UHGV virus genome: UHGV-0149711
Length of the DNA stretch: 19,578 nucleotides
Source of the DNA: a virus
Strand: one strand, 5' to 3'
The notes under the pieces are model-generated. The model searched no databases. It saw only the letters and a program-made list of their open reading frames with translations, and was not told the origin of the DNA. This document shows, one piece after another, positions 14,336 to 18,777 of the stretch (the stretch's first letter is position 1; the number at the start of each line of letters is the position of its first letter). Made by a program: the position numbers and the translations under genes.

Positions 14336-15835
14336 TTAAGTTCTCCGTGCGATGGGCCTGATTGGGGCTGGTATCTTTTTCTCTTTTGGTTTTTTGATGT
14401 CGCGCATCATTTTGGCGAAGCGGCGCATCATGTATGCATAGCGAACGGCGGATAGCACGTCGTCGTTAAGCTTGACGATCTTCCCGTTTTCATCACGGTG
14501 ATAGAGGCGGAACTCCTCAAAGAATGGCTCACAGGTGTTGAATACTTTGAAGCGACCATCAAGCATCATGTCGCGCAATTCAGTGATTCCAGGCTCCACA
14601 GCGTTACCGCCATCAGGCCATGTCGCATGCTCCTGCAACATCATAAAACCAGCGTCCGCGTACTGCCCTTTGAGCTGCTCACCGCCGCCCTTCTCATGCT
14701 GGTTTCCGTCATGAGGCCATGCGGTTGGCACTTTATGCGCCCATGATTTAACAGCTCCCCATGCCTGAACAGCTGTTTTTTCTTTCGCCTTCCACACGCG
14801 TGAAACGTAGATTGTGTCTGCGTCCTTATCCCACCAAAGCTGAACCTGCGCCTGTGGGTGATCCCATCCAAAATCCATCCCACCAATTACGTAGAAGTGA
14901 TCAGGACACTCGAACGGCTGACACTTAATAGTCTCTTCCGGTATCTGGAAGATTCGACCGCTACCCATCGTAGGAATACCGCGAGCACGCGCCTCTCTCT
15001 CATGCTCGGGATAGGATGCGATGATTTGCTCTTTCTGCTCGTCGGTGTAGTGCTCAGCGTCATAGATGGTCATGTTGACCACTTTCTGCGACTTGCTGGG
15101 ATTCTTCAGGAACTTGGTAACAACGTCAGACATCCCCATCAGCGGGGTAAACGTCAGAATTGAGAATTGCCCGTATTTGTTGGTACGGGTAAGGCCTTCG
15201 CCATAAATGCTGTATGGTGGCTCTTCGTCAAACCACACGCCGTGGATTGTGTCACCCTGCCAGCGAGCGCGGCCTTGCGAGTATGGTTTGAAGTAGCAGA
15301 TTGAAATGCCATCTTCAACGCCATCAGCCGTGTGATGCTTAACCAGAAGATGATCAACAAGGTTCGGAAAGAAAGGAGACTTCTTCCAGCTAATGATGTC
15401 TTCTTTAGGTATGGAACCGTAGCCTGGCTCATCATTCTCTTCGATACGACCACACAGGATGCGTTGAGTCGTTTTGGTTACAGTCTCGTTTGTCTCGCCG
15501 CCAATCCAGAAGACAACAGGCTCATAGAAACGCTTACCTTTCCACTCCCCACCATATTTACCATCAGCCGGATAGCCTTTTGTTCCCGGATAACGCCCGG
15601 TAAGGTGAAACGCGACTTCAGCAGCCCCAGTAAATGACTTACCAAGCTGGTTCCCAGCCATAAAACAGCGCTCTGGATAGTCATGCCCGGCGTCGATGAA
15701 CTCACGCTGTTTGCTGTATGGCGTAAATTCATATAGCAGGTGTGTGTTCCGGTAGTTCTCTTCTTCTTCGAGTAGCTCGAGCAACTCGATTTGCTCTTCG
15801 TCGCTCAGGTTATCAAGAATCGCGTCCAGTTCCAC
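14336..15835 (-). CDS. Terminase large subunit (P22 gp2-like)
   Basis: 499 aa. [37 protein letters not shown]...GNQLGKS (Walker A)... is near-identical to P22 gp2 as recalled. Its start overlaps the 3' end of the small-terminase gene. Confidence 0.97.
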
Positions 15836-16301
15836 GGTTGAATAGCTCCTTGATACGAGAGCGTCGCTTATCGCGATCTCCCTTATCAGGTGTCACGTCT
15901 TCAACTTGCGACTGCTCTTTGAGGCCCAAATCACGGGCGATGATGTTAGCGTTGAGAAGGTCAGCGGCAGCGCCAGAGAATTTCTGGTCGTAGATGATGT
16001 CTTCCGCTCGTGATGTGACGTCAGAAAAACCTTCCATTGACCGGAAGGTTCCCCATGTTTGCCTGGTGATATCAAGGAAGGTACACAATCCTGAAATAGT
16101 CATGGCTCGCATCTTAGGGACATTAGCCTTAATTATTTCTCCCTGATATGAAAATACCTTACCCTCCCATAGCGGGTTATCATCAGCCCACTCGAAGTAT
16201 TCACAACAAGCAGCCCACAGCGCCTCAGGCGATTCGAATTTAGGATTTCGCCCATGACTACTGCGGGCCTCCCAAAATCGGTTGCCCTTTGGTGCTGCCA
16301 T
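15813..16301 (-). CDS. Terminase small subunit (P22 gp3-like)
   Basis: 162 aa. [38 protein letters not shown]...[59 protein letters not shown] matches P22 gp3 as recalled, with a divergent central segment. SD AAGGGA upstream. Confidence 0.95.
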
Positions 16302-16306
16302 ATTGA

Positions 16307-16396
16307 TTATTTCCCTTCTGCTTGCTTATCCCATTCATCGCGGAATTTGGATGGGTTGTCGAAGCCCTGAGAGCCTGAACAAACTTTGATTACCAT
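16307..16396 (-). CDS. Putative 29-codon micro-ORF immediately upstream of the small terminase gene
   Basis: ATG at 16396..16394 overlaps the stop of the upstream Cys-rich ORF (TAATG). SD AAGGAG is 7 nt upstream. It encodes [29 protein letters not shown] and its stop is 5 nt before the gp3 ATG. Not in the ORF track (below its length cutoff). Confidence 0.25.
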
Positions 16397-16590
16397 TACT
16401 TAGCTCCTTTCTGCTTGCCTGTGTTTGATGTCGTTTCAGCAGCAGCCCCAGAGCAATTAACGCTACCCGCAACACCATATCCATAACCAGTCTTGAAGAA
16501 ATTATTGCCAGTAAATTGGTTAACAATCTTCCCGCAGCACGGGCAGCGTTGGCATTGGCAATAAGGGGATTGATTATTCCAGTGATACAT
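16396..16590 (-). CDS. Small Cys-rich / Gly-rich hypothetical protein (64 aa)
   Basis: I trimmed the track ORF 16396..16665 to the ATG at 16590, which has a strong SD (AGGAGA, 6-nt spacer). Product: MYHWNNQSPYCQCQRCPCCGKIVNQFTGNNFFKTGYGYGVAGSVNCSGAAAETTSNTGKQKGAK. It has no transmembrane segment and carries a CxCxxCxCC cluster. Confidence 0.4.
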   Translation of the reverse strand: MYHWNNQSPYCQCQRCPCCGKIVNQFTGNNFFKTGYGYGVAGSVNCSGAAAETTSNTGKQKGAK

Positions 16591-16963
16591 CTTGTTTCTC
16601 CTGAATGAATGGCAGGAAGTGATTAACCATCCTGTCCAGCATGTAACAGTACGTCTCGTTGGCATCTTCAGGCCTTGTCGTCACGCCGACATCAGAGCAA
16701 ACGTAAAAGCAGACGTGGGCGCACTCATGAACGAGCGTAGCGATCTGCTGATCGAATACTCCAATCAGATAGCATCGCTCACCCGTATCAGTGTTTTCAT
16801 AGTTGCTTGCAAACCCAAGATTGAATGGCTTCTCATCCCCGCTGCCGCCAAGGAATTTATCAGCGTGCTGAAACTGTTCTCTGGTTGTTGCGAGGTAGAC
16901 ATGTGCACTTTGAAACAGCGGAATGGTGAACGCCGGGAGTTTGTGCCATTTGGCCTTAGCCAT
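16574..16963 (-). CDS. Putative zinc metallopeptidase (HExxH motif), family unassigned
   Basis: 129 aa with HECAH at residues 79-83 (nt 16715..16729), preceded by hydrophobic residues (IATLVHECAHV) as in SprT-like or ImmA/DUF955-type peptidases. SD GGAG is 8 nt upstream. Its ATG is 1 nt after the stop of the upstream 80-aa ORF. Confidence 0.55.
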   Translation of the reverse strand: MAKAKWHKLPAFTIPLFQSAHVYLATTREQFQHADKFLGGSGDEKPFNLGFASNYENTDTGERCYLIGVFDQQIATLVHECAHVCFYVCSDVGVTTRPEDANETYCYMLDRMVNHFLPFIQEKQDVSLE

Positions 16964-16964
16964 A

Positions 16965-17207
16965 TCACACTCCGGTGGTGAACAGGTCTAACGCTTCCTT
17001 CGATTTACGCACCGCTTCGATAGTTCGGGTCGTGATATCTGAATTAGCGCCACCTGACTGGAAGTGAATTTTGAATAGCTCAAGCTTCAGCTCGTCAGTG
17101 CCAATGAATTGAAATGCTTCTTCTGCGGCTGCGTTCTGGTTCATGACCAGTTTGTAAATCTCTAACTGGAATTTCTGTTCTTCAGTCATGGGAATAATCT
17201 CTGCCAT
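16965..17207 (-). CDS. Hypothetical small protein (80 aa), first gene of the small-ORF string upstream of the terminase
   Basis: MAEIIPMTEEQKFQLEIYKLVMNQNAAAEEAFQFIGTDELKLELFKIHFQ... SD GGAG is 7 nt upstream. It is tightly coupled to the downstream HExxH ORF. Its size and position recall the small ORF I remember upstream of P22 gene 3, but I cannot verify this. Confidence 0.5.
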   Translation of the reverse strand: MAEIIPMTEEQKFQLEIYKLVMNQNAAAEEAFQFIGTDELKLELFKIHFQSGGANSDITTRTIEAVRKSKEALDLFTTGV

Positions 17208-17463
17208 TGTTGGCTCCGTTTATCCGTTAAAAGGGATATCAGTTAAGTTATCCCGTGTAGGGTATAAGCCATTGTCGAGACCACTCATTGAATGGCCTCT
17301 GCAATAACCGATGTCTTTCCATCAGTCCGCCACCACAAAGAATCTTTTTTGCCATAAGGCTGGAGGTTCATCTTTCAGTGGCTGCCAGTGTTATTTCCCC
17401 ACTTACTGGCTTGGGTTGTTTCGCGGTACTGCCGTAATGCAAAAACTGGATTAACCTGCGAAA

Positions 17464-17994
17464 TCACACCATTCCGGGCAAATACATTTGCACTTCATTT
17501 GCCGCTCTCTCACGTGCAACATGAAGCAATCTTTTTCGCCCACCAACGCCCCACTTAGCCATTTGGTTTGCGCACTGGCTTATCGCTTTGGTTTCAGTAT
17601 TGATGATGTGATCGATTCTATTCAGACGGGACATTGCGCCAACGCCGAGACGGACAACCGTTTTGAAAACTTCATAAACTTCGATTTCAAATTCCGGCTT
17701 AATCCATGCTGCATATCTGATTGCCAGAAGTTCAACACCCCACACACCTGGTTCTGCACCACCTTTGATTGTTTTAAGTGGTTGAATTTGTTCCAAAGTG
17801 CTTTTTTGCACTTTGGCCTCCAGTGCTTTTATGAAGCGTTTTATCTGCGCGCTACGCAAAAACTGGCTTGGGCGCTGTTGCTCTGTAGCCTCTCCATTTG
17901 CAACTGCTGCTGCATGGAGATCGTTTAAGTTGTAGCGTCCATCCTCATCAACACGAACGGACACACCATTGACAATAACTGTTGGGTACTTCAT
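17464..17994 (-). CDS. KilA-N domain-like protein (putative DNA-binding/regulatory accessory gene)
   Basis: 176 aa. The N-terminal pattern TVIVNGVSVRVDEDGRYNLNDLHAAAVANG fits the KilA-N/APSES-type signature (I..R.D.DGRY.LNDLH.A.G). It is flanked by non-coding DNA on both sides (17208-17463 and 17995-18339). Confidence 0.55.
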   Translation of the reverse strand: MKYPTVIVNGVSVRVDEDGRYNLNDLHAAAVANGEATEQQRPSQFLRSAQIKRFIKALEAKVQKSTLEQIQPLKTIKGGAEPGVWGVELLAIRYAAWIKPEFEIEVYEVFKTVVRLGVGAMSRLNRIDHIINTETKAISQCANQMAKWGVGGRKRLLHVARERAANEVQMYLPGMV

Positions 17995-18140
17995 CAGTGA
18001 TTACCTTTTAGTGATGAACCTTGTCACACAGGATTCCGGCCCACAGAAAGGCACCGATCACCAAACCGGCATCCTCAAGGGTCATCCTGAAAGGTTCTGT
18101 GTTCAGAAGTCGCGCGTGTGAAGCGCGTTTGTTGCAGATA

Positions 18141-18165
18141 TAAAAAAGCCCCGCGAATGCGAGGC
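18141..18165 (-). terminator. Putative rho-independent terminator downstream of Rz
   Basis: The minus strand reads GCCTCGC-ATTC-GCGGGGC followed by TTTTTTAT: a 7-bp GC-rich stem with one G.U pair and a U-run. A second GC hairpin (CGCGC-N7-GCGCG, 18111-18127) is adjacent. Confidence 0.55.
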
Positions 18166-18339
18166 TAAATCCTGGTGTTTGTGATGACTGGCTCTTATCT
18201 CAACGCAGCCCCTTACCGCGCGCCATATGCTCAATATCAAGCATCAGCAATGAGATGTTTAATCTGGATTCACTCCAGAAGTGATCACCACCCTGTCTAC
18301 AGAGCCAGATGTGAAGGATGATGAGTAAAATTATCGCTA

Positions 18340-18777
18340 TCATCGAAGGCATTGCGTCCTGATGTATTCCTGCAGGTAGTTAACCTGCGCGGTTATCTTG
18401 TCGATTCCACTTCGGAGACGGTAATAATTGAGTTCAGCATCTGCTGTAAGTCTTGGGCTTTCTCCATCGCCCATGCCGCTGGCTCCGGTCGTTGACTTTG
18501 CACAGGTGGCGGCGACTTGCAGGCGCTTACGACCAGCAGAAACATCAGCACGGAGACTTTCGATAGTAGCGTTAGCATCAGCAAGCTCCTTTGTGTATCT
18601 GGCGTCGAGTTCTGCTACGTCACGTTGACGCTTCTGCATGTCAGCGATTGTGGATGCGGCCTTATCTCGCTGCTCTTTGTAGGCGATGGCGTTATCACGG
18701 TAATGATTAACAGCCCATGACAGGCAGACGATGATGCAGATAATCAGAGCGGGGATAATCGCGGTTACTCTGCTCAT
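18340..18777 (-). CDS. Rz: Rz i-spanin (inner-membrane spanin subunit)
   Basis: 145 aa. [37 protein letters not shown] matches the lambda Rz N-terminus (N-terminal TM, coiled-coil periplasmic domain). The C-terminal half is divergent. It overlaps the R stop. Confidence 0.92.
18393..18584 (-). CDS. Rz1: Rz1 o-spanin (outer-membrane lipoprotein) embedded in Rz in the +1 frame
   Basis: 63-aa ORF lying wholly inside Rz. It has a signal peptide ending in a lipobox (VVSA-C) and a Pro-rich mature region ([14 protein letters not shown]...), which is the classic lambda Rz/Rz1 architecture. Confidence 0.8.

Follow-up and report, generated by a model that had tools for sequence, protein, structure and literature searches.

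Four coupled small genes between the lysis and terminase genes of a P22-like prophage: probable mosaic cassettes that include a putative mini-zincin

The window, by which we mean the whole 19,578-nucleotide stretch of UHGV-0149711 that was analysed, belongs to a P22-like prophage in which all of the genes of the locus considered here lie on the minus strand. Between the gene for a KilA-N domain protein and that for the small terminase subunit, gp3, lie four small open reading frames (ORFs), referred to below as orf80, orf129, cys64 and the micro-ORF. The comparisons described here suggest that these are probably four genuine, translationally coupled small genes that make up at least three independent mosaic accessory cassettes, and not one machine. 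The features of the block and its two immediate flanks are as follows.

16965–17207, minus strand: orf80, 80 amino acids (aa); matches PF10834 (1.1e-43) and phrog_571 (2.7e-41)
16574–16963, minus strand: orf129, 129 aa; matches phrog_1365 (4.6e-37); predicted stand-alone mini-zincin of the Orf129/HkcC family
16715–16729, minus strand: HECAH motif (H79, E80, H83) in the first long helix of the Orf129 model
16655–16660, minus strand: N102-E103, proposed to supply the third zinc ligand, where the last helix of the Orf129 model begins
16574–16603, minus strand: last ∼10 codons of orf129, the left mosaic joint, which carry the AGGAG and ATG of cys64 and move together with that gene
16396–16590, minus strand: cys64, 64 aa, an orphan; Cys cluster near the N-terminus, tail rich in Gly and Tyr
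16534–16560, minus strand: Cys cluster of cys64, C11-Q-C-Q-R-C-P-C-C19 (C11, C13, C16, C18 and C19)
16307–16396, minus strand: micro-ORF, 29 aa, intact in 18/18 loci
16307–16371, minus strand: widely shared core of the micro-ORF, with the right mosaic joint at ∼16371
17464–17994, minus strand: KilA-N domain protein (PF04383, 4e-18), the upstream neighbour, outside the coupled chain
15813–16301, minus strand: gp3, small terminase subunit (PF16677, 8.3e-31; phrog_606, 3.5e-71), the downstream boundary

The original prediction, made from the sequence alone, had described four chained minus-strand ORFs with their coordinates, overlaps, a 5 nt gap and the HECAH motif, and every position in it was found to be correct. 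The orf80/orf129 junction reads TGA-t-ATG, orf129 and cys64 overlap by 17 nt (16574–16590), cys64 and the micro-ORF are joined by TAATG (16394–16398), and 5 nt (16302–16306) separate the micro-ORF from gp3. The flanks had been named as KilA-N and gp3, with which the Pfam matches agree (4e-18 and, for PF16677, 8e-31). Three of the ORFs had been credited with clear Shine–Dalgarno sequences; these sites are real but the number was too low, as GGAG or AGGAG lies 6–7 nt 5′ of the ATG in all four (GGAG 6 nt before that of orf80, AGGAG 7 nt before that of the micro-ORF). For cys64 the mechanically called ORF opens at the ATG at 16665 (89 aa), and the conserved start preceded by a Shine–Dalgarno sequence is the ATG at 16590. 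Chance alone often produces ORFs of 29–64 aa (a 4.6-kb stretch around the locus holds 79 that reach 20 aa or more), so the reality of the small ORFs rests on comparative evidence.

Among 5,426 complete Escherichia coli genomes, the full block was present in 16 and the segment comprising cys64 and the micro-ORF in 18; the block was also found in 13 IMG/VR contigs, in Atlantibacter subterraneus (GTDB) and in one Logan contig. In all 18 loci examined orf129, cys64 and the micro-ORF were intact and in the same order, one copy of cys64 starting with GTG, and the stop/start overlaps (TAATG, TGATG and ATGA) were preserved across these loci with their different flanks. Upstream were found KilA-N, Rha, Gp49, other genes or nothing; downstream, either P22-type gp3 or an unrelated small terminase of 141 or 146 aa accompanied by a different large terminase, and in other cases an additional ORF of 110 aa or a Dec-like one of 172 aa. 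Ratios of nonsynonymous to synonymous substitution (dN/dS, ω; Nei–Gojobori) were 0.03–0.08 between divergent copies of orf129, 0.16–0.49 for cys64 in the proposed frame, with ω of ∼1–2 in its other two frames, and 0.04–0.26 for the micro-ORF. Since both of the smaller ORFs are intact in 18 loci, and ω is far below 1 only in the proposed frames, cys64 and the micro-ORF are most likely translated genes, a conclusion drawn from comparison of sequences. The view of the original prediction that these are four real, tightly coupled late-operon ORFs recurring as a block in related prophages was therefore upheld, and the lack of neighbourhood conservation that it had named as a ground for giving it up was not what was found.

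In the 18 E. coli genomes the Prokaryotic Genome Annotation Pipeline (PGAP) leaves the interval from orf129 to gp3 without any annotated gene, which would fit a different view, that the 64- and 29-aa ORFs are not genes and that the 272 nt between orf129 and gp3 are a non-coding leader, concerned with translational or packaging control, or a remnant of a dec-type gene. It would also be consistent with the absence of family matches and of an AlphaFold2 fold for cys64, with the frequency of ORFs of this size by chance, and with three variant clusters (P0006, P0004 and P0003) that alter or break the cys64 frame. We consider it highly improbable, however, because both ORFs stay open in 18/18 loci despite up to 36% protein divergence, with ω of 0.04–0.49 in frame against ∼1–2 out of frame, because good Shine–Dalgarno sequences and the stop/start overlaps are kept, and because a paralogue of the micro-ORF retains its Arg through a change of CGC to AGG. 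There is also no similarity to Dec, and no Rfam match at E ≤ 1 was obtained for 15700–18400, apart from an irrelevant match to asX2 elsewhere. A dec remnant in particular was rejected, as the blastn matches of 16290–16680 to phages ST64T and L are confined to the orf129 3′ end, and Dec is unrelated to cys64 and the micro-ORF. The Dec decoration protein of phage L does resemble these ORFs in occupying the same slot after orf129, in being expressed late and in being coupled to its neighbours by overlaps, but they share no sequence similarity with it and are half its size or less, and association with the virion is not indicated. An alternative-frame hydrophobic ORF at 16335–16526 (63 aa) was likewise rejected as the true gene; it is truncated in the divergent locus L008, and ω in that frame is ∼1–2.

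The boundaries of homology within the block argue that its pieces have been exchanged separately. In Atlantibacter and one IMG/VR contig (L024 and L025) the first ∼360 nt of orf129 belong to the ST64T type, with 73–97% identity per 30-nt segment, and the final 30 nt, containing the AGGAG and ATG of cys64, are 100% identical to those of the window. An 89%-identical orf129, present in nine E. coli genomes, loses homology near the same 3′ point; these genomes have no cys64, and their orf129 is followed by a PhageMetallopep protein and DUF2280, or directly by the small terminase. Elsewhere the gene that follows orf129 is Dec, or a 46-aa Lys-rich ORF with an Ig-like 156-aa ORF, or a Sequestin-family ORF. 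At the other end, the last 70 nt alone (16371–16302) match ∼200 further E. coli genomes. Because mosaic joints thus fall at ∼16603, in the 3′ end of orf129, and at ∼16371, in the micro-ORF, the four ORFs represent at least three exchangeable cassettes. Their description as one undescribed module did not survive this comparison, as two of the four are catalogued and the pieces recombine independently. Since most orf129 genes have unrelated neighbours, the predicted zincin clearly does not need the Cys peptide, although cys64 lies next to orf129 in every locus in which it was found, all of these being fairly close relatives.

Scans with the hidden Markov models (HMMs) of Pfam and PHROG placed the first two products in existing families. 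That of orf80 matched DUF2560 (PF10834) over its full length (147.7 bits against a cutoff of 25, profile positions 1–72 of 72), and the DNA is 95–98% identical to P22-like phages; to judge from this match it is P22 Orf80, a member of the DUF2560 family, in the identical upstream position and with no notable difference. Orf129 matched phrog_1365 over profile positions 3–121 of 127 (4.6e-37), which makes it a member of that family. By tblastn it shares 61% identity with the Orf129 proteins of phages L and ST64T and with the product of epsilon34 gene 70, whose genes occupy the equivalent slot, and 35% with HkcC, encoded in the immI region of HK620 and P22. More than 200 clusters, formed at 90% identity, make this a large family that extends across the Enterobacterales (Escherichia, Salmonella, Citrobacter, Klebsiella, Enterobacter, Cronobacter, Pantoea, Erwinia, Yersinia and Pectobacterium). 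Its members in varied phages were confirmed to occupy the late-operon slot between lysis genes and terminase, or to be present as paralogues in the immI region as a moron; the order in the window is alike. Compared with the proteins of L, ST64T and epsilon34, HkcC and the phrog_1365 family, Orf129 of the window shares the length, the slot between orf80 and the gene that precedes gp3 and the invariant HExxH...NE, and it differs in its C-terminal ∼10 residues because a different downstream cassette is attached.

The original prediction could match the combination of ORFs to no P22 or lambda function; it had overlooked that the first is P22 Orf80 and the second is Orf129 of phage L or HkcC of HK620. 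Profile searches, which it had recommended for the 129- and 64-aa proteins, place the 80- and 129-aa products in catalogued families, but these families are themselves uncharacterised, so the prediction is not overturned by them. Gene 70 of epsilon34 is annotated only as a conserved hypothetical protein, the epsilon34 genome paper puts hkcC among genes of unknown function (PMC2629481), and a literature search found no published function for Orf129, HkcC or DUF2560. What was already known is thus that two of the ORFs belong to catalogued uncharacterised families and that cys64 is present in nr as a hypothetical protein; what is new is that Orf129/HkcC can be assigned to the zincins, that two small genes have been validated and that the mosaic joints have been mapped. 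None of this amounts to a system of a new type.

A subgroup of Orf129 homologues is found in coliphages that are not P22-like, such as mEp515 (L004 2501–3085; P0122–P0126). These are 180–194 aa long and have a C-terminal Lys/Glu-rich extension of ∼55–65 residues, ending …KKGKRKPKAKEA…RFKRG, that looks like a nucleic-acid-binding or capsid-binding tail. The idea that cys64 is a frameshifted C-terminal domain of Orf129 was discarded, as the Lys/Glu-rich tail of the 194-aa mEp515 homologue is unrelated to cys64, and other long homologues that might have been taken for fusions proved to be N-terminal miscalls.

The original prediction had seen a HExxH zinc-peptidase signature in Orf129, and the motif is indeed conserved in the manner of a catalytic one: in an alignment of 59–61 family members H79, E80, H83, N102, E103, Y105 and Y107 are invariant, and C81, C89 and C106, around the active site, are near-invariant. 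E103 lies 20 residues past H83, which we take to be the spacing of thermolysin-type gluzincins. The AlphaFold2 model of Orf129 (predicted local distance difference test score (pLDDT) 85.6; predicted template modelling score 0.81) has a β-α-β-β-α-α, zincin-like topology, comprising a strand (20–25), a helix (28–37), two strands (50–56 and 63–69) and two helices (74–91 and 103–128). HExxH falls within helix 74–91 and helix 103–128 begins at E103, as expected of the motif helix and third ligand of a zincin, and the topology agrees with the published description of the zincin core (Iyer et al., 2017; PMC5512222). Searches of the BFVD predicted viral structures gave 30 matches at E ≤ 0.001, mostly uncharacterised phage proteins of 110–160 aa, with a few annotated as SprT-like, PolyVal metallopeptidase or metalloprotease, and no significant fold match to the model was obtained among solved structures.

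Finer placement was less successful. The match to SprT-like (PF10263) reached 12.8 bits against a threshold of 25.6 and covered only the HExxH helix (38 of 59 relatives show a similar sub-threshold match), and that to TIGR04267 (aKG-HExxH peptide β-hydroxylase) reached 17.9 bits against 40, over 30 residues around the motif, so that Orf129 falls outside both families. The protein stands alone, at 123–136 aa family-wide, with extensions that are only a Lys/Glu-rich tail or miscalled N-termini, which is not the architecture of the metallopeptidases (MPTases) of polyvalent proteins; no signal peptide or transmembrane segment is visible in its sequence. With the SprT-like and MPTase-PolyVal zincins (Pfam clan MA; PMC5512222) it shares the HExxH helix, the Glu on the next helix, the three-strand sheet with an N-terminal helix and phage origin, but unlike them it is a stand-alone protein of 129 aa that has no SprT zinc ribbon and lies under every curated HMM threshold. 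Orf129 is thus best described, from its sequence and model, as a member of the Orf129/HkcC family that resembles a stand-alone zincin peptidase and is not placed in the SprT-like or polyvalent MPTases, and the conservation of its residues suggests that it may be an active peptidase. A system for ribosomally synthesised and post-translationally modified peptides, in which a HExxH hydroxylase would act on a Cys-rich precursor, was also considered and rejected, since the TIGR04267 match is far below the cutoff and confined to the motif, and no other maturation genes are present.

The third product, cys64, is an orphan. It forms only six clusters in 5.8 billion proteins, one of which, with 90 member sequences, is a ‘hypothetical protein’ at NCBI, and none of Pfam, PHROG, NCBIfam and PADLOC gave a match to it. 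Nor did remote homologues emerge from an exhaustive profile search; the matches that this did return, one frameshifted variant and three giant repetitive proteins matching the low-complexity tail, were dismissed as spurious. Every variant keeps cysteines C11, C13, C16, C18 and C19, and even in the 64%-identical copy of L008 residues 9–29 are unchanged and their codons differ only synonymously. The CxCxxCxCC cluster may bind metal. Its dense CxC, CxxC and CC spacing, in a short protein that has no hydrophobic core, is presumably akin to that of metallothionein-like or zinc-knuckle small proteins, from which cys64 differs in having just five clustered cysteines, no family match and no predicted fold. 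Three variant clusters, each of at most three member sequences, comprise a fusion with the micro-ORF (P0003, 89 aa), a truncation (P0004, 51 aa) and a frameshift (P0006, 84 aa); these may be sequencing errors or reflect tolerated loss of cys64.

Several points weigh against the conclusion that the block is a set of separate cassettes. The constant adjacency of orf129 and cys64 remains compatible with a functional pair, and the joint between them falls in a conserved stretch that favours homologous recombination. No function, from annotation or experiment, is available for any of the four ORFs, and expression of the four genes is predicted. For cys64, the AlphaFold2 model has a pLDDT of 39.9 and no predicted fold, so metal binding is a guess from composition. 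Taken further, the adjacency leads to the idea that Orf129 and cys64 form a dedicated two-component unit, in which the peptide might be cleaved by the zincin as its substrate, might cap the catalytic zinc as an inhibitor or latency factor of the cysteine-switch type, or might be a partner that donates metal or holds a metal cluster, and the pair would act on a host target, for example a defence protein triggered by terminase or portal. Consistent with this, cys64 lies directly 3′ of orf129 in 18/18 loci with its Shine–Dalgarno sequence and ATG embedded in the orf129 3′ end, it is joined to two orf129 alleles that are only ∼61% identical, its Cys cluster is strictly conserved, and Orf129 has near-invariant cysteines of its own (C81, C89 and C106) around the active site. 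Nevertheless we regard such a unit as unlikely: there are more than 200 Orf129 clusters against six of cys64, most orf129 genes have unrelated neighbours, which also weakens the protease/substrate suggestion of the original prediction, no natural Orf129–cys64 fusion was found among the Orf129 homologues, there is no PADLOC or other defence-related match, and a recombination joint in a conserved stretch itself accounts for the co-occurrence. We therefore retain the reading of independent cassettes.

The micro-ORF has the widest distribution. In the ∼200 further E. coli genomes that share its 3′ part, and in phages APC_JM3.2, E212 and EC.P3, the core is a 23-aa ORF separated from orf80 by 2 nt and from gp3 by 5 nt. 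A pattern made by back-translation of the peptide matched at least 120 IMG/VR stretches, and the core had an in-frame start and stop in all 121 of the matches listed (including two loci obtained separately), a figure that is uninformative on selection because these copies were chosen by their peptide pattern. In IMG/VR the copies sit 5 nt before two unrelated types of small terminase. A paralogous micro-ORF of 23 aa with its own GGAG is present in Emek and HK544, between KilA-N and orf80 or HNH, and encodes Arg by AGG in place of CGC. In the copies that were retrieved independently of the peptide, the substitutions are biased toward synonymous ones. Because the contexts differ and the substitutions are biased in this way, a function at the level of the peptide is favoured over an element of the terminase leader, and we infer that the product acts as a peptide and not as an RNA or DNA site.

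The micro-ORF core gave a weak but recurrent match to DUF2740, a 43-aa enterobacterial family, at profile positions 19–32 in all variants tried; at 12.7–13.4 bits against a cutoff of 27 it falls outside the family. An ORF annotated in Emek as ‘orf53’, which is in another frame than the conserved micro-ORF, is probably a miscall. The spacer of the window at 17220–17464 (minus strand) is homologous to the KilA-N/orf80 spacer of Emek (L033 1400–1690) and HK544 (L034), and it is without the 23-aa paralogous micro-ORF of those phages. A more far-reaching proposal is that the micro-ORF, at 23–30 aa, is a translated functional micro-protein missed by annotation in ∼200 of the 5,426 E. coli genomes and in many IMG/VR lambdoid phages and prophages, with two paralogous forms, which acts in the switch from expression of the lysis genes to packaging, for example by modulating the small terminase or late translation, and which in the window has been joined to the Cys peptide as a thiol or zinc regulator of Orf129. 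Taken as a whole we consider this proposal decidedly unlikely.

We return to the independent cassettes. Their neighbours in other loci include several further genes. In E. coli ABWA45 (L036 1801–3334) the 89%-identical Orf129 is followed by an unrelated 212-aa metallopeptidase (PhageMetallopep, 4e-43) and DUF2280 before the terminase, so that two different zincins are adjacent at the start of the packaging genes. The 110-aa ORF between the micro-ORF and the small terminase (L008 1671–2003; L024 and L025 3287–3619) occupies the Dec slot of phage L; it has a weak sub-threshold match to DUF1737 and may be a decoration-type or accessory protein. In a Klebsiella aerogenes prophage (L031/L032 2874–3484) the 46-aa Lys-rich ORF overlaps the gene for the Orf129 homologue at its 3′ end, in the manner of cys64 in the window, and the 156-aa Ig-like ORF that comes next, with sub-threshold Ig_3 and PKD matches, is possibly a Hoc-like capsid decoration protein.

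The position of the block had been likened to the classic moron slot. Morons have their own promoter and terminator and often a deviant base composition; around the block no bracketing σ70-like promoter or terminator was found, with site counts at the level expected from shuffling, and its GC content (0.45–0.50) is like that of the flanks, so that it appears to be an integral part of the late operon and not a classic moron. It also seems very unlikely that it is a moron for lysogenic conversion or superinfection exclusion expressed from the prophage. The location, between functional modules where morons often sit, and the HkcC paralogue that adjoins sieA in P22 would be in keeping with this, but it is opposed, besides the lack of a private promoter, terminator or compositional break, by the chaining of the genes through translational coupling into gp3 on the late strand and by the searches of PADLOC-DB, in which none of the four products had a match at E ≤ 1. 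No observation connects the four genes with anti-defence or superinfection exclusion, and those suggestions of the original prediction were not borne out. A strong terminator-like hairpin at 18147–18166 (minus strand; 8 bp, 6 of them GC, followed by a T-run) lies a short way downstream of Rz, inside the late operon, and matches the rho-independent terminators that are annotated at this position in Emek and HK544. Its presence implies that the genes downstream, the four ORFs included, need Q antitermination to be expressed.

The arrangement that we favour is accordingly one in which the accessory stretch would form the head of the virion-assembly part of the P22-like late operon, its four genes being transcribed by Q-antiterminated late transcription. 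The first cassette would be Orf80 (DUF2560). The second would be Orf129, a predicted cytoplasmic, stand-alone mini-zincin with its zinc-binding and catalytic residues intact; its most likely role is to cleave one particular protein, of the phage or of the host, at a late stage of infection. The third would comprise the last ∼10 codons of orf129, cys64 and the N-terminus of the micro-ORF, and cys64 may modulate, act with or be processed by the upstream zincin. The fourth would be the micro-ORF core, encoding an acidic peptide of 23–30 aa that appears to circulate alone in lambdoid late operons. In P22-like phages recombination is concentrated in the region that separates lysis genes from terminase, where non-essential late genes are carried, Dec being the sole characterised one, and two additional small genes within it are real yet invisible to standard annotation, the conserved micro-gene being the freshest item. 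The interest would be considerable if the zincin were to cleave a host defence protein or a phage assembly protein, or if the micro-protein were to control packaging.

The gene order of the locus also takes in the following genes on either side of the block.

19557–19234, minus strand: holin
19250–18774, minus strand: lysozyme
18777–18340, minus strand: Rz
15835–14336, minus strand: gp2

Within Rz, in another frame, is a 63-aa ORF (18393–18584, minus strand) with a lipoprotein-like N-terminus, which is expected from its sequence to be the Rz1 o-spanin.

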